Positions 28,941 to 34,941 of a stretch of DNA of 64,000 bases are shown here, in pieces. This DNA comes from Promethearchaeota archaeon Loki_b31. GTDB taxonomy: Archaea; Asgardarchaeota; Lokiarchaeia; Sigyniarchaeales; SOKP01. The notes below the pieces were generated by a model that ran no database searches, was not told the DNA's origin, and saw only the letters and a list, made by a program, of their open reading frames with translations. Numbering within the stretch: position 1 is the stretch's first letter; every line of letters begins with the position of its first letter. Both the position numbers and the translations under genes were made by a program. The stretch covers positions 1-64,000 of the forward strand of contig NJBI01000004.1 of the NCBI GenBank assembly GCA_005222975.1, written 5' to 3'.

Positions 28941-29516
28941 CTAGTGAAGTAATTTTTGTTTTCTTAGTTTTAACAAATCTTCTTTTAGGAGCGAATACAC
29001 ATAATTATCCAAATATTCTCCGTTAACATACATATCTTTCTTAAATGTAGCTACGCGAGTAAAACCGTTTTTCTCTGCGCAACGCCACGACCCTTTATTA
29101 ACAACAAGTATAGAGGCTTTAAGTTTAAAAATGTTTAGTTCGTTAAATGCATATTCAACTAATAATCTTGTAGCTTCTTCTCCAATTTTTTGCCCCCAAT
29201 AATCGGGCTCTCCAATAAGCAACCCTAAATATGCTTGTTGGTTGTACCAGTTGATATCTGACACTTCTCCATAGCCAATTATCTTTTTATCTTTTTTATG
29301 CCAAATTTCGAAACTTACCTCATTTTTAAGTCTTTTATCCGAAGGCTCTAGGTATTTCTTCATTTCTTCTACAGTACGAGGTAAAATGTTCCGAGAGTAT
29401 ATTCGCACTTTTGGGTTATTTTCCCATTTTGCATACAATTTAATATTTTCAATATTTAATGGGACGAAATCTATAGTTTCTCCTTCGATAAAGGTAAAAA
29501 TATCTTGATTCTTCAT
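28941..29516 (-). CDS. GNAT N-acetyltransferase (RimJ/RimL-like)
   Basis: IGEPDYWGQKIG, NKGSWRCAEKNGF. Confidence 0.9.
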   Translation of the reverse strand: MKNQDIFTFIEGETIDFVPLNIENIKLYAKWENNPKVRIYSRNILPRTVEEMKKYLEPSDKRLKNEVSFEIWHKKDKKIIGYGEVSDINWYNQQAYLGLLIGEPDYWGQKIGEEATRLLVEYAFNELNIFKLKASILVVNKGSWRCAEKNGFTRVATFKKDMYVNGEYLDNYVYSLLKEDLLKLRKQKLLH

Positions 29517-29548
29517 AATTCTTAATGATATAAATGGTAAATATTATT

Positions 29549-30106
29549 TTATTCCTTTGATTTGAGCCAATCTTCTTTTAAATATCTATACATCCTCGCA
29601 TCGACATATTCTCCATCGATATATATCATCTTCTTCTCAGCGCCTTCTAACACAAAACCATCTTTTTCAGCCACACTCCACGAACCTATATTAGGTTCAA
29701 ATATTCCCGCGTAAATCTTATGAAAATTGAGCTCTCCAAATCCATAATCGATTAAAAGTTTCGATGCTTCGGTTCCTAAGTTTTTATTCCAATATTTAGG
29801 CTCGCCTATTGACATAAATGTATTGGCGTGTCTATTTATCCAATCAATATGTCCATATCCACAAGTTCCAATTGGCACTTTATCCTTTTTATGATAAATT
29901 TCAAAAGTTACAAATTCTTTTATCCCTTCCCTTGGTTCAAACCATTTTTTTGATTCTTCAACGGTAATTGGTATTGTATTACGAGCATATCTTCTTACGC
30001 GAGGGTCGTTTATCCATTTCGCATAAAGATTAACATGTTCTAAATTAATAGCAACCAAGTCAATATTTTCTCCTAAAATAAAGGGAAAAACTTCTGGTTT
30101 TTCCAT
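29549..30106 (-). CDS. GNAT N-acetyltransferase (RimJ/RimL-like)
   Basis: IGEPKYWNKNLG, NIGSWSVAEKDGF. Confidence 0.9.
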   Translation of the reverse strand: MEKPEVFPFILGENIDLVAINLEHVNLYAKWINDPRVRRYARNTIPITVEESKKWFEPREGIKEFVTFEIYHKKDKVPIGTCGYGHIDWINRHANTFMSIGEPKYWNKNLGTEASKLLIDYGFGELNFHKIYAGIFEPNIGSWSVAEKDGFVLEGAEKKMIYIDGEYVDARMYRYLKEDWLKSKE

Positions 30107-30165
30107 CTTCTATAACCTCATAAGTTTTCAGTTTAAATTATTCATTTGATTTTTTATAATATTAA

Positions 30166-30726
30166 TTATTTATTCGTTTGTTCCCATTCTTCTCTAAATA
30201 TACAAAATTTCAATTCGTCGACATACTCTCCGTCGAAATATGTTTGATTTTTCAATGCTAATTCGAGTTTCATTCCAGTTTTCTCAAGCATACGACAAGC
30301 TCCCTTATTTGGCCTTAAAGCTGAAGCTGTAATTTTAACTAAGTTTAATTCTTCAAATCCGTATTTGATCATTAGTTTTGCTGCTTCTGTACCCAAATTG
30401 TTTCCCCATAATTCTTTTTCTCCTATTAAGAAGCCTAAATCTGCTGCGTGATTTATATAATTAATATGATGGAACTCTACAAAACCAACAATTTTATCAA
30501 GTTCTTTATGATAAATTTCAAAAAAAATATCTCTCATTGGTCGCTCTTGTTTTTGCTCTAAACGCTTCTTTAGATCTTCAGGAGATACGGGAAAAACATT
30601 TCGGGCGTATAATCTCGTTTTAGGGTCGTTCGCCCATCTAGCGTGGATTCTTGCGTTTTCGGGATTAAATGGGAGAAGTTCTATGCGTTCCCCCTCAATA
30701 AATGTTAATCGCGTATTTTTTTCCAT
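30166..30726 (-). CDS. GNAT N-acetyltransferase (RimJ/RimL-like)
   Basis: IGEKELWGNNLG, NKGACRMLEKTG. Confidence 0.9.
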   Translation of the reverse strand: MEKNTRLTFIEGERIELLPFNPENARIHARWANDPKTRLYARNVFPVSPEDLKKRLEQKQERPMRDIFFEIYHKELDKIVGFVEFHHINYINHAADLGFLIGEKELWGNNLGTEAAKLMIKYGFEELNLVKITASALRPNKGACRMLEKTGMKLELALKNQTYFDGEYVDELKFCIFREEWEQTNK

Positions 30727-30755
30727 AATTTACCCGCCAATCCTTCACTTAATAA

Positions 30756-31352
30756 TTAATTTTCATCTTTCATTTTCCAATCTCTTTTAAACAATGCGAA
30801 TTTGTGGATATCGTGATATTGCCCGTCAACATACATTTCTTCTTTTAAAACGCCTTCTTTTTTAAATCCTAATTTTTCAGCTGCACGAAGAGACCTTTTA
30901 TTTGGTGTAAAAACTCCAGCAAAAATTTTATGAAAATTCAATTCAGTAAAACCATAATTGATCATTAAATTAGAAGCTTCACCAGCTATACCCTTCCCCC
31001 AATATTCAGGTTCTCCTATTGTTAAAAATATATTAGCATTTCTACTGACCCAATTAATGTGATTAAATCCTATACTACCGATTGGCCGTTTTGCGTGCTT
31101 ATGATAAACTGTAAAGACAATGAATTCCCTCATTTGTCTGTCTGGTGGGGGTTCGAACCATTTTTTTACTTCTTCGAGAGTTTTTGGCCACATATTTCGA
31201 GAATAATGACGGACTTTTGGGTCATTCATCCATTTACAAACTAAATTAGCCCATTTAGAATTTCCAGCAACTAAATCGATGGTCTCTCCATTTATAAAAG
31301 GAAATACATCTTCTTCTTCCTTATCTTCTTTATCTTTTTTTTCTTCTGTCAT
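30756..31352 (-). CDS. GNAT N-acetyltransferase (RimJ/RimL-like)
   Basis: IGEPEYWGKGIA, NKRSLRAAEKLGF. Confidence 0.9.
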   Translation of the reverse strand: MTEEKKDKEDKEEEDVFPFINGETIDLVAGNSKWANLVCKWMNDPKVRHYSRNMWPKTLEEVKKWFEPPPDRQMREFIVFTVYHKHAKRPIGSIGFNHINWVSRNANIFLTIGEPEYWGKGIAGEASNLMINYGFTELNFHKIFAGVFTPNKRSLRAAEKLGFKKEGVLKEEMYVDGQYHDIHKFALFKRDWKMKDEN

Positions 31353-31487
31353 GTTTTAGCCTCAAATAAAATTCATATTTCATTGAATTTGATTAAGAAA
31401 TATGAATGAGAGTAAAAATTAATATTTTTACATTTAAAATAAAAAAAAAATAGAAAATTAAATAATTTTTTACAGTAAAATTGAAAT

Positions 31488-31541
31488 CTACAATAATTTC
31501 ATTGCCAGAGTCATGTCGTTAACAGTTAATTTCTTTCTGCC
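31488..31541 (-). repeat. Intron-less duplicate of the histone gene 3' end (att-like direct repeat)
   Basis: GGC AGA AAG AAA TTA ACT GTT AAC GAC ATG ACT CTG GCA ATG AAA TTA TTG TAG = GRKKLTVNDMTLAMKLL*, the same peptide as spliced 34258-34341 with only synonymous differences. Confidence 0.92.
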
Positions 31542-32323
31542 AATTCCTTTAAATTTATGAAATTAAAATAAAAAATTCTTTCTCCCGTTAATTTAGAATA
31601 GAAGTAAGTTAAGCTAATCTTAAGAAAATAGAGTTTGTGCCTGCTCTAAAGCAAATCTTTTCCAGTTTATTTATTAAAATTACAAAAAAATTGAGTCGCC
31701 TTTCCTATTGAATAAAAATTTATAATAAACGGTTGGATACTAAATTTTATGGATTAGGATGTGAAACCCTTAGTTCCGATTGTTAAGGTTTGATCGGGTT
31801 GATCTAAAAGTTGTTCTTGTTTGAAAAATCGTTTCGTATTCGATTGAGAAAAGTTTTTTGTCCTGAACTAACGCGATTAAATTCTACTAAATACACCTTA
31901 ACTAACTCCTTATATAATGTTTTACCGAACTTGGTTTCTATGAGTTTTATTTTCATCACCTTAAATTCTTCTGTTGGCTAATATTTGCGATCCCTTTCGC
32001 AATATACTCTAAGAATTGATATATATTCCCGTTTCGAGAATCGAGCATGAGCAATTGGCACTTTGCTTTTTGCTGGATTTCTTCGGAACAAAAAGACAGA
32101 AAATCGGCAATGTCTTCTACGTGAAAATAATTCCTGCCCTTTTCGTCCTCAAATTAGATGTTATATCCCTTATCTAAGGCGAGCGTTGACAAAAACTAAA
32201 ATAGAAGCCCTTTTTGATTTTAGTTTGGACTAATCTGAGCCCTATTTTATTACTAAATTCGGAATTTACGATTTTAATTGCAATCTAATTTTTAGAAACG
32301 AAAATCTTTTTATTCCGATGAAT

Positions 32324-32641
32324 TCAATCAACGATTTTATAAAATACATCTCTTACTGACGCAATCAAAATACATTCTGAGCCCCCGCCGTCAATCCTCA
32401 AATTACTAATTACGTAAGGTCTATTTGAAGTGCCTTGCCCGACACATCTCCCCGAATTTATTAAGTCGATCCAATCGTTATCGTCGTCAATTAGGATGGG
32501 TGCTGATGGAACCGCGTTTGAAGTTTCTGCCTCCATTTCGCTGGATTTATAGGCACCTGTAGTACTCACAATTGATAACAAGGGTATACACGCTATTATA
32601 AATATAACGCTAACCAAGAAAAAAATCTTAAAAGTTTTCAT
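32324..32641 (-). pseudogene. Truncated secreted protein (N-terminus of a NosD/beta-helix-type surface protein)
   Basis: Signal peptide plus PILIDDDNDW...GQGTSNRPYVISNLRIDGGG, then a premature TGA and further stops. Confidence 0.6.
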
Positions 32642-33045
32642 AAAAATATAAGTCAGGCTATCGTACTTAAAGAAAAACTCGACTTGTTTCTACTCGAAAA
32701 GGATGAGTTTTTCTTTTTGATCGATTAATTAAATTAACTATTGATAAACGAGCTAAATCCTATAAATTTGAATCCAAAATTAAAAAAAAATAAAAGTTCA
32801 AGAGGGGTTGATATAAAAAGGAAAAATCCCGGCGATACATTAAACCGGCTAAGTGAAAAGATTTAAATACTGCGAAATAATTTCTATTCATAGAAAGATA
32901 AAATTCGAACAAAACGATTCTTTTGGATTTTAATCTATCACTAAGTTAGCTAGATCTGAAGTTTAAAATAAGCGTAAAAAAATAAAGATTAAGATAAGGA
33001 TAAAATAAAAAACGAAATTGAAATGAGATAGGGAAAAAATAACCG

Positions 33046-33157
33046 TGACTCCTGCGCCACCCTGGATTTTTGTCTTTTGGTAGTGCGTAAAGCACTCATC
33101 TAATACTCCCCCTATTTTGTTTCTGACCTTCTTATTAGGTCGAGGCAGCAGGAGTCG
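33046..33157. other. GC-rich structured element (candidate ncRNA or cis-element)
   Basis: Closing stem GACTCCTGC-GCC / GGC-A-GCAGGAGTC; internal hairpins AGTGC-GTAAA-GCACT and GACCT-TCTTATT-AGGTC. Confidence 0.5.
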
Positions 33158-33249
33158 TCTTTTTCTTTCATTTTCTTTTCGTTGCTTAATAGGAAAAATA
33201 AAAACTATAAAACTTTTTCTTTAAATAACCTCTTTCGTAACATATTAAC

Positions 33250-33828
33250 ATGAAAGAAGATACAGCAGTCGTGAAGATTAAGTTTTACGACCACGGGCTC
33301 GGAAGAGAGCAAGTTATTTACGGAGAGGTAAAAGCGAGCAAGATAGATCGGTTCGAAACCAACGAAGATTCTTGGATTACATTGACCGACTCTAATAGAT
33401 CGCTTATCGTACCTAAGATAGATGTCGCGTGCATAAGCGAGTTCAAAGAACTCGGTGAGCTAGACGGTCATGAGAAAGAGTTAAATATTGCTTTTGAGTT
33501 TAACGGACCCCAACACTATAAATTGAGCCATTGGATGGAGGTATACGGATTAAGCGAAAGCGTTGCGAGAAAAAGGTTTTATATTCAAATTATTAACGAT
33601 CTTAACAAACTAAGGGAATGTCAAAAGAAAGATACGGTATTAATCGTTCTATCCTCTTTGGATAATCCTAGTGACTGGCAAGACATCATAGTTCATCAAT
33701 ACGAACTTTGGACGGGTAAAAAAGCTCCAGTAAAACACCCATTAGATTACGAAAGTGTCCTTAAATTGATATCAGAAGAAGATATTGGAACCTTGAAGAT
33801 TAAATTTTTAAAAAATTTCTCCGGTTAA
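33250..33828 (+). CDS. Hypothetical protein (island)
   Basis: 192-aa ORF, no recognised motif. Confidence 0.65.
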   Translation: MKEDTAVVKIKFYDHGLGREQVIYGEVKASKIDRFETNEDSWITLTDSNRSLIVPKIDVACISEFKELGELDGHEKELNIAFEFNGPQHYKLSHWMEVYGLSESVARKRFYIQIINDLNKLRECQKKDTVLIVLSSLDNPSDWQDIIVHQYELWTGKKAPVKHPLDYESVLKLISEEDIGTLKIKFLKNFSG

Positions 33829-33908
33829 TTTTAAATTAAGTTAGTCTTATATTTATATGAGAATACTTAATAACATATTAAACAGAACTTAAGCGAGCGC
33901 ATATTACT

Positions 33909-34193
33909 ATGGATGAAATTAAAAGGATCAAAAATATTAATATAGATGAAATCAAACGGATGGCTAAGTTTGTTAATGATAATTACCTGACGGACTGCAT
34001 TGGTAATAAGGAGAATTGTTTTTGCAAAGTTTTCTACGACAACAGAATTTTATTCTGCGAATTTCCTGCTTATTGTGCTCGTTTATTAATTAATAAGGAA
34101 AATGGATTGCTCAACGAACTGGTTGATGAAATATGCGAAGAGAGAAGGGAAGAAGCGATATATTGGAATTTTGTTAAGAGAGATCAGGAATAA
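33909..34193 (+). CDS. Small Cys-containing hypothetical protein (island)
   Basis: 94-aa ORF with several Cys. Confidence 0.55.
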   Translation: MDEIKRIKNINIDEIKRMAKFVNDNYLTDCIGNKENCFCKVFYDNRILFCEFPAYCARLLINKENGLLNELVDEICEERREEAIYWNFVKRDQE

Positions 34194-34257
34194 ACAGAAT
34201 AAAAAAAAAAATTAAATATTTTTTAACTCATTGTCGTACAATCATTCGACTTTAATT

Positions 34258-34500
34258 CTACAATAATTTCATTGCCAAAGTCATGTCGTTGACGGTAAGT
34301 ATAAAGATTTAAAGTTAAATACTAAAAATTTTCTTTCTGCCGGCATGTCGAGTCATTTCTAATGCTTTATTTGTTACTCCTCTAGCAGCTTTCTCTAAAT
34401 AATCAATAAGAGCGTCTACTGCTTCACGAGCAACCATTTCAGCGCCGTTATCTTTCATTAACTTTCGAACTGGTGACCAGGCAAATACTTTTTTAGCCAT
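34258..34500 (-). CDS. Archaeal histone (HMf-like, 70 aa after splicing), join(34500..34331,34300..34258)
   Basis: Spliced product MAKKVFAWSPVRKLMKDNGAEMVAREAVDALIDYLEKAARGVTNKALEMTRHAGRKKLTVNDMTLAMKLL; GGAGG SD upstream; T-rich tract downstream. Confidence 0.93.
34301..34330 (-). other. Putative BHB-type mRNA intron (30 nt) in the histone gene
   Basis: mRNA AG-AAAG-AA|A-AUUU...AAAU-CUUU-AU|A-CU: 4-bp helix AAAG/CUUU flanked by 3-nt bulges AAA and AUA; contains two in-frame UAA. Confidence 0.88.
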
Positions 34501-34941
34501 TTTTTTCATTCCTCCACTTTTAACTTTTTAATATTTTTTTCTAAAGTTCACATTTTTCAATTTGAACCTTATTATATTATATATTTTCTTTTAAATATTT
34601 AAAACTTGCGTAATATTTTTGATAGGGTATGTTTCGGTTAATAATTTCTTCCGATCGACAAAATTACGATGTTAGAGAAGAAAAGCGGGAGATACACTTC
34701 TGAGCCGTTAGATCAGAGATCTTTTTTTATTTTTGAAAATATAGACGAGGCAGAATTAAGTATAGAGGAAATGAGCTAGCTTTGGTGAGAATGCTATTAT
34801 TTGATATATTTTCTGGATAAAAGTTAATAATTTAAAAGACTTTGTTACCTTCTTAATTTTGATTACATAACACTTAATTGATTTAAAATTTTAAATATTA
34901 GATTCTCGAAAGTTATAACAAAAAAGTATTTATTTAAAAAA

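Follow-up and report, generated by a model that had tools for sequence, protein, structure and literature searches.

Organization of the histone locus

The DNA analyzed here, referred to as the window, comprises 64,000 nt (forward-strand positions 1 to 64,000) of contig NJBI01000004.1 from the assembly GCA_005222975.1 of Promethearchaeota archaeon Loki_b31 (G000). It was compared with 154 genomes of the order (G numbers) and with metagenome contigs (L numbers). As seen in Table 1, a minus-strand histone gene is interrupted by a 30-nt intron shortly before its stop codon and is followed by a two-gene module and, farther downstream, by a second copy of its 3' end. Exon 1 matches the Pfam family CBFD_NFYB_HMF (E value of 1.6e-8), and the histone orthologs of 19 genus genomes are 88 to 100% identical. 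Gene callers shorten this histone to 58 to 64 residues.

Table 1. Features of the histone locus (positions in the window)
Feature	Position	Strand	Remarks
Histone gene	34509..34258	-	Reads into the intron, then exon 2'
Histone exon 1	34331..34509	-	M..HAGRK plus first two bases of the last Lys codon
BHB intron, 30 nt	34301..34330	-	Only canonical hBHBh' in the 103 nt scanned
Histone exon 2', inserted replacement 3' end	34258..34300	-	Third base of the Lys codon plus LTVNDMTLAMKLL and stop
Duplicated clade-typical histone 3' flank (T-run terminator)	34195..34257	-	Arrived with the replacement end
orf94, Cys-rich small protein	33909..34193	+	Convergent with the histone; second gene of the nuclease-to-orf94 module
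Putative Vsr/EDxHD-type nuclease domain (C-terminal)	33454..33828	+	Remnant of a 480- to 900-aa protein
Unrelated module fused onto the nuclease remnant	32779..33453	+	GC-rich repeat plus 68 small-protein codons
Rest of insert	31542..32778	.	Holds the 105-aa ORF; no recombinase found
105-aa ORF	32324-32641	-	Signal-like N-terminus
Displaced original histone 3' end, intron-free	31488..31541	-	GRKKLTVNDMTLAMKLL and stop
Native downstream flank of the histone	31353..31487	-	Toward the GNAT array

A BHB intron in the histone gene

Behind the codons for HAGRKK, the histone frame enters a 30-nt stretch with two in-frame TAA codons, after which the same frame resumes with LTVNDMTLAMKLL and a stop codon. 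By its motif, this interruption is a canonical bulge-helix-bulge (BHB; tRNA-type) intron, for which splicing is predicted. A central helix (AAAG/CUUU) lies between bulges of 3 nt each (AAA and AUA), and the flanking helices consist of outer pairs AG/CU plus CGG/CCG (2 (+3) bp) and an inner helix AUUU/AAAU (4 bp). The cut was placed after the second base of the bulge, and the hBHBh' motif falls at the sole position that restores the reading frame (P of approximately 4e-4 to 6e-5 for that position). The predicted spliced product, GRKK joined to LTVNDMTLAMKLL, equals the product of the intron-free orthologs; predicted removal of both introns in the C25 paralog likewise restores its frame.

The motif is conserved in eight alleles, with one compensatory pair, in which the first inner pair changes from A-U to U-A. 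The third base of the 5' bulge varies (A, U, or C), yet every intron-free ortholog has Lys there; L049 and G092 have a different inner hairpin in its place. Most intron-bearing alleles have in common the first six bases of exon 2' (CTTACC), which form the outer helix of the BHB motif with exon 1. The intron was present in 4/154 genomes of the order and in 11 further metagenome contigs, representing about five lineages, and the same intron (30/30 or 29/30 nt) was found in lineages more distant from G000. Genes for splicing machinery are present in the genome, namely, two of the EndA type (PF01974; C13 and C79) and one for an RtcB ligase (PF01139).

Other explanations of the 30-nt stretch were considered and rejected. 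A GT-AG-type intron or a ribosomal bypass lacks matching signals, and the BHB motif accounts for the stretch. Reassignment of TAA does not hold either, as other genes end in TAA and the stop-free intron of L049 retains the structure. ARAGORN and Rfam gave no match in the window or the insert.

An insertion that displaced the original histone end

An earlier reading of the window from its sequence alone (the sequence-only reading) had described an intron-free second histone end downstream, with the same peptide and synonymous changes only. This description was borne out, since the distal copy consists of the last 17 codons of the histone and the stop codon and differs from the proximal end at 5/54 nt, all synonymous (CTT/TTA, ACC/ACT, GTC/GTT, and TTG/CTG). 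It opens with the 12-mer GGCAGAAAGAAA, identical to the terminal 12-mer of exon 1, so that the repeat does start directly before the intron position, as had been proposed. The repeat had also been described as consisting of the last histone codons; the codons are indeed repeated, but the duplication does not end with them and continues past the stop codon for approximately 65 nt through the T-run terminator region of the 3' flank, with a 16-nt indel. Misassembly was ruled out, the repeat being too short and both junctions lying within one 130-kb contig.

The flank past the distal copy is approximately 90% identical to that behind the intron-free histone of G005, G021, G017, and G009; because it corresponds to the relatives' native flank, the repeat is not due to chance. 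Moreover, the distal copy runs on into 30739-31487 just as the intact intron-free gene of the relatives does. An empty site was found in seven relatives, both close and more distant (G005, G021, G017, G009, G008, G014, and G010), each with a single intron-free histone that adjoins the GNAT array or an MFS gene and is joined straight to the flank found behind the distal copy. Positions 30739-31541 and 34330 onward are contiguous in all seven, overlapping by the 12-mer, and the clade nearest G000 (92 to 94% flank identity) is empty throughout. Therefore, 31542-34329 (2,788 bp) was inserted, and the distal copy represents the original end, which the incoming DNA pushed downstream while bringing a replacement 3' end. 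The comparison with empty-site relatives that the sequence-only reading had suggested thus gave one answer, as all seven carry the intron-free end together with the downstream flank of the distal copy. One of its two alternatives, delivery of an intron-containing 3' end, fits these data, because the nearest relatives of G000 all lack the intron, and lineages farther removed carry the same one.

A putative nuclease and its small partner

The two-gene module of the insert is formed by the C-terminal domain of a putative Vsr/EDxHD-type nuclease and by a 94-aa Cys-rich ORF, orf94. The nuclease remnant is 71 to 76% identical to the C-terminus of the full L034 and L036 proteins. The family has 42 members, and D, E, G, and H residues invariant across 33 aligned members are kept in the remnant as D72, E83, G86, and H89 (numbering of the 192-aa ORF). 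Fold comparison with VIA-align matched Vsr (1cw0; Z of 7.4 over 97 aa), I-Bth0305I (3r3p; Z of 6.2), RAP (9gek; Z of 5.5), and 3hrl (Z of 5.2), all of them moderate matches (Z of 5 to 7). In this ranking, which VIA-align alone gave, the top four are all Vsr-type nucleases, a homing endonuclease among them. Foldseek against the PDB returned nothing significant for either model (E > 0.1), a PDB sequence search gave no match, and neither Pfam nor PHROGs assigned a family to the full nuclease, to orf94, or to the 105-aa ORF. The N-terminal region of the nuclease had no match in the protein atlas. The full nuclease also weakly resembles helical-repeat plus RAP RNA-binding proteins, and because of this likeness the protein may play an RNA-directed role.

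In G000, the nuclease gene is truncated and appears to have lost the N-terminal 370 residues to an unrelated module. This module carries a GC-rich structured repeat of approximately 110 nt (33047-33156) and the first 68 codons of a small-protein gene, and its other copy lies at C65:35223-35997. Homologs of orf94 with 58 to 87% identity were found in metagenome contigs beside the nuclease gene or a fragment of it and an intron-bearing histone; G146, G053, and G127 carry further homologs, with 32 to 36% identity, behind the other paralog of the histone.

Linkage of the module with histone genes

The module recurs directly behind histone genes in other genomes and contigs, mostly behind an intron-bearing allele. 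It lies 50 to 110 nt from the histone stop codon in G000, L034, L036, L049, L131-134, L135-138, and L143, all of which bear the intron. The nuclease is full-length in L034, L036, and L143; in the last it has at least 774 aa, and L143 as a DNA sequence is 86.5% identical to 33453-34378 and has the same exon-2 peptide. A module with a full nuclease also stands behind an intron-free histone ortholog in G144 and is absent from 25 sampled congeners, and the second histone paralog is followed by the module in G146, G053, and G127. Four of the five modules beside this histone accompany the intron, versus 1 module among approximately 150 intron-free orthologs.

A second case of a duplicated end is found in L139-142, where an orphaned 3' end belonging to the other paralog and starting at NRKK directly adjoins the module; L141 has a second partial copy of that end on the other side of the module. 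The full cassettes of L034 and L036 sit in the intergenic spacer without a duplicated histone end, so duplication is not obligatory; distal histone fragments were sought in L034, L036, L135, and L054, and none was found. Behind the intron-bearing histones of G015, G002, L035, and G092, T-runs were present and neither a nuclease nor a cassette remnant. In the second histone paralog, different 30-nt BHB introns occupy the same site with no nuclease nearby; therefore, the histone RKK site may attract introns for reasons other than the nuclease.

Origin of the insert

We consider it somewhat probable that the insert derives from a mobile nuclease cassette that lives behind the histone genes of this archaeal family and has decayed here; in appearance, it fits a decayed homing-nuclease cassette better than an integrase-type island. 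An intact cassette would have three parts: a replacement histone 3' end, here with the 30-nt BHB intron at the RKK codons; the 94-aa Cys-rich ORF; and a protein of 480 to 900 aa, with a helical N-terminal region and a Vsr/EDxHD-type domain. The nuclease would cut intron-free histone alleles, presumably about 12 to 15 nt upstream of the intron site. Repair of the break from the cassette-bearing allele would copy the intron into the gene together with the replacement end and the cassette, and the resident 3' end would stay downstream as a dead fragment. The splicing endonuclease of the host and its RtcB ligase would excise the intron from the mRNA, which would keep the histone intact. The intron and the nearby synonymous changes would split the presumed nuclease target and in this way shield the invaded allele. 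The sequence-only reading had suggested shielding of an att site, an idea that may hold in the altered form of an intron that splits a nuclease target. In G000, loss of the N-terminal region of the nuclease would have come later. Counting against the cassette are the four intron-bearing histones without a nuclease (G015, G002, L035, and G092), the G144 nuclease beside an intron-free histone, the full cassettes of L034 and L036 that lack a duplicated end, the BHB introns of the second paralog that have no nuclease nearby, the moderate fold matches of the nuclease and its weak likeness to RNA-binding proteins, and the far 1.2 kb of the insert, which the cassette leaves unexplained.

A rather unlikely alternative is ordinary recombination from strain to strain at a variable spacer, in which DNA of a relative with the intron-bearing histone would have come in with one end inside the histone and an illegitimate join at the other, where the nuclease-like gene would be a passenger or have an unrelated cellular role. 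The histone-to-GNAT spacer is highly variable, with differing contents and an MFS gene that is present, truncated, or absent, and the insert itself is a mosaic. In exon 2' and its flank, the sequence is typical of the clade to which G000 belongs, and BHB introns are common in the histone genes of this family even where no nuclease is nearby. However, such recombination leaves unexplained why the module, nuclease followed by orf94, is found in both orientations behind two different histone paralogs across three genera, why it accompanies the intron so much more often than the intron-free gene (the four of five modules given above), and why the two paralogs have displaced ends with the same starting codon.

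We regard as improbable an integrase-type element, or its remnant, that entered the histone 3' end by site-specific recombination, with the shared 12-mer as its crossover core and an attP carrying the intron-bearing end. Imperfect direct repeats do flank the 2.8-kb insert (54 nt plus the flank of approximately 65 nt, with 12 nt identical), the relatives are empty, and the repeat boundary is sharp, with identical distal and proximal 12-mers. The same NRKK boundary is seen at the orphan end of the other paralog, and a tRNA gene of Caldiarchaeum offers a precedent with a recombinase element of 1.8 kb (PMC3293823). Nevertheless, no recombinase or transposase domain was detected in any frame of 31542-34329 (Pfam and PHROG; ORFs and stop-to-stop frames), no second copy with the same ends was found in the 42 genus genomes, the full cassettes elsewhere sit in the spacer without att-like repeats, and the insert is a mosaic. 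The sequence-only reading had also suggested a search of Asgard viruses and integrative elements for histone 3'-end attP sequences; no similar element was found in viral contigs, and searching them with the intron pattern, the nuclease, and orf94 gave no match. Hence, its view of an island in the histone gene stands as regards the insertion, given the empty sites, and is not supported as regards an integrase acting on att sites: no recombinase was found in any frame of the insert and no viral or element relative in the searches, and L034 and L036 show no duplicated end.

Finally, the scenario that the sequence-only reading had named as its own refutation, in which the distal fragment is the leftover of a tandem histone paralog whose 5' part is gone, can be set aside with near certainty: although tandem paralogs are known in other families of the order (e.g., G025 and G032), the relatives within the genus all lack a second histone gene at this locus, the downstream flank of the fragment is that of the relatives' single gene, and the DNA between the copies is absent from them.

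Comparison with known systems

The proposed decayed cassette resembles the mobile endonuclease ORFs (mORFs) of fungal mitochondria (Allomyces macrogynus atp6; Glomus atp6, atp9, cox2, and nad3), in which a C-terminal duplication displaces the native C-terminus (PMC3630166). Both have the 5' part of the gene, an inserted in-frame replacement C-terminus, an endonuclease ORF, putative in G000, and the displaced native C-terminus, the order in G000 being exon 2', orf94, nuclease domain, filler, and native end. In both, the native fragment keeps the context it has in relatives, the copies differ synonymously, and the distribution is patchy. Unlike the fungal mORFs, which encode LAGLIDADG or GIY-YIG enzymes, the putative nuclease belongs to the Vsr/EDxHD type; its gene is not fused in frame with the histone but runs convergent to it, and a 94-aa ORF accompanies it. 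Moreover, the replacement end carries a BHB intron, the host DNA is an archaeal chromosome and the target a histone gene, and mobility is proposed from sequence.

A second parallel is collaborative homing, described for the free-standing F-CphI beside the intron-containing psbA of cyanophage S-PM2 (PMC6083498); trans-homing of the I-TevIII intron by T4 mobE is related (PMC2790892). As with F-CphI, an intron without its own endonuclease gene adjoins the free-standing gene of a nuclease, putative in the histone case. Some alleles have the two together, some have just the intron, and others have neither one, and the intron is proposed to interrupt the nuclease target. The psbA intron is a self-splicing group I ribozyme, whereas the histone intron is a 30-nt BHB intron that would be spliced by proteins. 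Target and protection were demonstrated experimentally for F-CphI and psbA, whereas both are proposed here from the observed co-occurrence.

In the tRNA-Thr gene of Caldiarchaeum subterraneum, an intron was gained and a gene fragment displaced around a 1.8-kb element (PMC3293823). There, too, a BHB intron came with an insertion of approximately 2 kb that left a fragment of the original gene beside it; unlike that case, the gene here encodes a protein, the fragment is 3' rather than 5', and a nuclease domain is found instead of a recombinase. BHB introns in archaeal mRNAs are known from cbf5 of Desulfurococcales and Sulfolobales, with splicing demonstrated (PMC2738675). Like these, the histone intron is presumably a substrate of the tRNA splicing endonuclease, and its presence or absence depends on the lineage; it differs in lying in an Asgard histone of another phylum, in having its arrival preserved with the empty site, and in that its splicing is predicted. 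Regarding the enzyme, I-Bth0305I and Vsr (PDB 3r3p and 1cw0) appear to share with the putative nuclease the fold of the C-terminal catalytic domain, along with acidic and His residues that are conserved; a long N-terminal region, possibly for binding nucleic acid, is a further likeness. However, identity is just 8 to 16% with no Pfam match, and the putative nuclease is free-standing and not in an intron or intein.

Implications

The locus bears on the question of how BHB introns arrive in archaeal genes, as one arrival is preserved here in full: sister genomes show the site while still empty, and G000 has both the intron-bearing end that came in and the original end that was displaced, along with a candidate enzyme. 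The event is one traceable way for a BHB intron to enter a gene. If the intron is excised as predicted, a core chromatin gene of an Asgard archaeon would depend on tRNA-type splicing of its mRNA. We tentatively propose, as a possibility that we would stop short of calling probable, that the BHB intron spreads as DNA cargo and shield of a free-standing Vsr/EDxHD-type homing nuclease cassette targeting the conserved RKK region of Asgard histones. Such spreading would be the archaeal counterpart of collaborative homing and would give BHB introns a concrete way into genes. The locus, as read here, also extends the design of an endonuclease ORF plus a replacement gene end from fungal mitochondria to archaeal chromosomes.

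Displaced histone 3' end and empty sites in relatives

In the 3.5-Mb genome of Loki_b31 (31.5% GC; G000, the window being its contig C83), the reading frame of the histone gene is broken after ..MTRHAGRKK by a 30-nt stretch containing two in-frame TAA codons, past which it resumes in the same frame as LTVNDMTLAMKLL*, the loop-2/helix-3 end of the fold that exon 1 lacks. The sequence-only reading had described a second, intron-free 3' end encoding the same peptide with only synonymous changes; this copy, GRKKLTVNDMTLAMKLL*, was found uninterrupted, with 5 differences, all synonymous. Both copies start with the 12-mer GGCAGAAAGAAA, and since the terminator flank (~65 nt) is also duplicated, with a 16-nt indel, the duplication extends past the stop codon.

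Orthologs occur in 19 genus relatives (88-100% protein identity). That reading had suggested asking which 3' end and flank empty-site relatives carry. In seven of them (genomes G005, G021, G017, G009, G008, G014, and G010), positions 30739-31541 are joined directly to 34330 onward with a 12-mer overlap, the histone is intron-free, and the flank behind it is the one behind the distal copy. Since the locus is contiguous and intron-free there, the intervening segment is inserted, and the distal copy is the original 3' end. The nearest clade (G005, G021, G017, and G009) is entirely empty-site, with 92-94% flank identity. A tandem histone paralog had been named as the competing origin of the fragment; none of the relatives carries a pair of histone genes here. 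An MFS gene separates the histone from the GNAT array in G014, G016, G010, G015, and G002, and therefore appears ancestral; it is missing in G005, G021, G017, G009, and G008, including G000's clade.

Coordinates of the features discussed (window positions unless a contig, C, or locus, L, is named; C contigs belong to G000, and L loci are mostly metagenome contigs)
Feature	Position	Strand	Remarks
GNAT (Acetyltransf_3) array	28941-31352	-	four tandem paralogs, 185-198 aa; copy number varies among relatives
Distal copy	31541..31488		
Insert	31542-34329		2788 bp
GC-rich element	33047-33156	+	~110 nt; also C65:35398-35535, C87, C77, C44, C43
192-aa ORF	33250-33828	+	
Its first 68 codons	33250-33453	+	from 94-aa small-protein gene past GC-rich element, C65:35798-36082; 90% protein identity
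orf94	33909-34193	+	after nuclease gene in G000, L131-138, L143, G146, G053
Exon 2' (inserted 3' end)	34258..34300		
Predicted BHB intron	34301-34330		
Histone exon 1	34331..34509	-	gene starts 34509; confirmed as histone by Pfam
Second histone paralog	C25:1596-1870	-	locus L121; two short introns
EndA-type (PF01974) genes	C13:36116-36340; C79:5005-5253		separate, ~200 codons each
Full nuclease-family proteins	L034:470-1972; L049:220-2940; C75:125734-127746		Vsr-type domain joined to a long helical region (in C75, to zinc-ribbon repeats)

A predicted BHB intron in the histone gene

A canonical BHB motif scan of the 103-nt region returned one match: a central AAAG/CUUU helix between the bulges AAA and AUA, AG/CU as outer pairs (lengthened by CGG/CCG), and AUUU/AAAU as the inner helix. 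The predicted cut past the second bulge base would remove the 30-nt interruption and join GRKK exactly to LTVN. This AT-rich genome has BHB-type motifs at a high frequency, 44 per kb; the probability of a chance motif at the sole frame-restoring position is ~4e-4, or ~6e-5 if the inner helix has at least 4 bp. Judged by its sequence, the interruption is very probably a BHB intron. The motif core is unchanged across eight aligned alleles (G000, G015, G002, G092, L034-L036, and L049), among which the first inner pair switches between A-U and U-A; inner hairpins differ in L049 and G092. At the third position of the 5' bulge the alleles have A, U, or C, whereas every intron-free ortholog has a Lys codon here, consistent with cleavage past the second base. 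G000 encodes RtcB and two EndA-type proteins; the EndA pair would fit a two-subunit splicing endonuclease, a type that reportedly tolerates non-canonical intron positions (PMC5829648). Public gene calls shorten the intron-bearing histone to 58-61 residues in L131-L138 and L143, so unrecognised BHB introns affect the histone counts of these archaea.

Of 154 order genomes, pattern search detected the intron in 4 (G000, G015, G002, and G092) and, beyond them, in contigs L034-L036; searches with cassette proteins added L049, L131-138, and L143. G000's own clade lacks it, and the G000 intron is identical (30/30) to that of G002, L034, and L036 and nearly so (29/30) to that of G015, lineages whose flanking genes are only ~76% identical to those of G000. 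This pattern fits the earlier proposal that the element delivered an intron-containing 3' end, and the intron entered with the insert. In the remainder of exon 2' and in the flank after it, the sequence is of the type usual in G000's clade. In contig L143, whose cassette is intact, the exon-2 peptide is unchanged and 33453-34378 is matched at 86.5% identity.

Contents of the insert

The 192-aa ORF is a chimera of two unrelated genes: residues 69-192 match the C-terminus of L034 and L036 proteins of 480-500 aa at 71-76% identity, and residues 1-68, with 470 nt upstream, copy a module also at C65. The GC-rich element, present in 6 copies in G000, encloses two hairpins within a 9-bp closing stem (GACUCCUGC/GCAGGAGUC); it is preceded by a TATA-like box and followed by a T-run. 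Base changes in one of the hairpins are compensatory (GUGCG..GCAC versus GUGUG..CACAC), Rfam gave no match to the element, and the insert query matched 39 of 42 genus genomes, mostly at this element, a candidate small-RNA gene family or MITE. Since orf94 follows the nuclease gene in many loci, the two form a module.

The C-terminal domain, a putative nuclease, belongs to a family that is small, with 42 representatives in a set of 1.8 billion proteins; in it D, E, G, and H never vary, and fusions to treble-clef zinc fingers are frequent. Foldseek gave no significant match with the domain model (pLDDT > 90), whose four best fold matches had Z scores of 7.4 for Vsr, 6.2 for the catalytic domain of I-Bth0305I, an EDxHD homing endonuclease, 5.5 for a RAP domain, and 5.2 for an endonuclease-like protein. 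The full protein has ~340 additional helical residues; weak best Foldseek hits of full proteins were helical-repeat proteins of apicomplexan mitoribosomes, and in architecture the full proteins recall the helical-repeat plus RAP proteins of eukaryotes.

Linkage of the module to histone genes

In G000, L034, L036, L049, L131-134, L135-138, and L143, all of which carry the intron, the module is found 50-110 nt past this histone's stop, in convergent orientation; in L049 the nuclease is only 44% identical and the intron interior differs. Relative to the empty, intron-free G014, the L034 cassette is a clean 1657-nt insertion that takes the place of 38 nt of the spacer. In G144, a full nuclease homolog missing from 25 sampled congeners lies behind an intron-free ortholog, and the intron is kept without the nuclease in G015, G002, L035, and G092. 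These states (empty, invaded, nuclease decayed, and intron alone) are those that would be expected of a homing-endonuclease cycle. G146, G053, and G127 have module remnants past their second histone paralog. In L139-142 the module adjoins an orphan 3' end of that paralog starting at NRKK, the same design and boundary as in the window, and L141 carries another partial copy on the opposite side.

Origin of the insert

On balance, we favor a nuclease-driven cassette, because the part order (gene 5' part, inserted end, nuclease ORF, and displaced native end) matches that of endonuclease mORFs of fungal mitochondria, whose endonuclease was biochemically shown to drive element mobility (PMC3630166), and an intron with a free-standing nuclease next to it is reminiscent of collaborative homing (PMC6083498). 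Recombination with the nuclease as a bystander is a distinctly less probable account. The least secure step of the cassette model is that the intron would protect the invaded allele. In the second paralog of G000, intron 1 (29 nt, after MAKKKHS) is a relaxed BHB and intron 2 (30 nt) a canonical BHB (GAAA/UUUC) at the same RKK site, the predicted spliced products reading exactly as intron-free orthologs. Unrelated ~30-nt sequences occupy this site in orthologs from G024, G142, G123, and G004, and G083 has one at another site. Given that the second paralog has at least four distinct 30-nt introns here and others elsewhere, and no nuclease nearby, the RKK site may favor BHB introns for structural reasons alone. 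As for the integrative island first proposed, the insertion itself stands, but an integrase-type island is improbable, as no recombinase was found in the insert (Pfam and PHROG; ORFs and stop-to-stop frames). ARAGORN found no tRNA in window 1-64000.

BHB introns in mRNA are already known from cbf5 (PMC2738675), and a tRNA gene has been proposed to have gained an intron, with a fragment displaced, around a mobile element (PMC3293823); our literature searches turned up no account of such introns in Asgard protein genes or in histones. A recent census left open how Asgard tRNA introns arrived, and this locus opens that question to a direct test.
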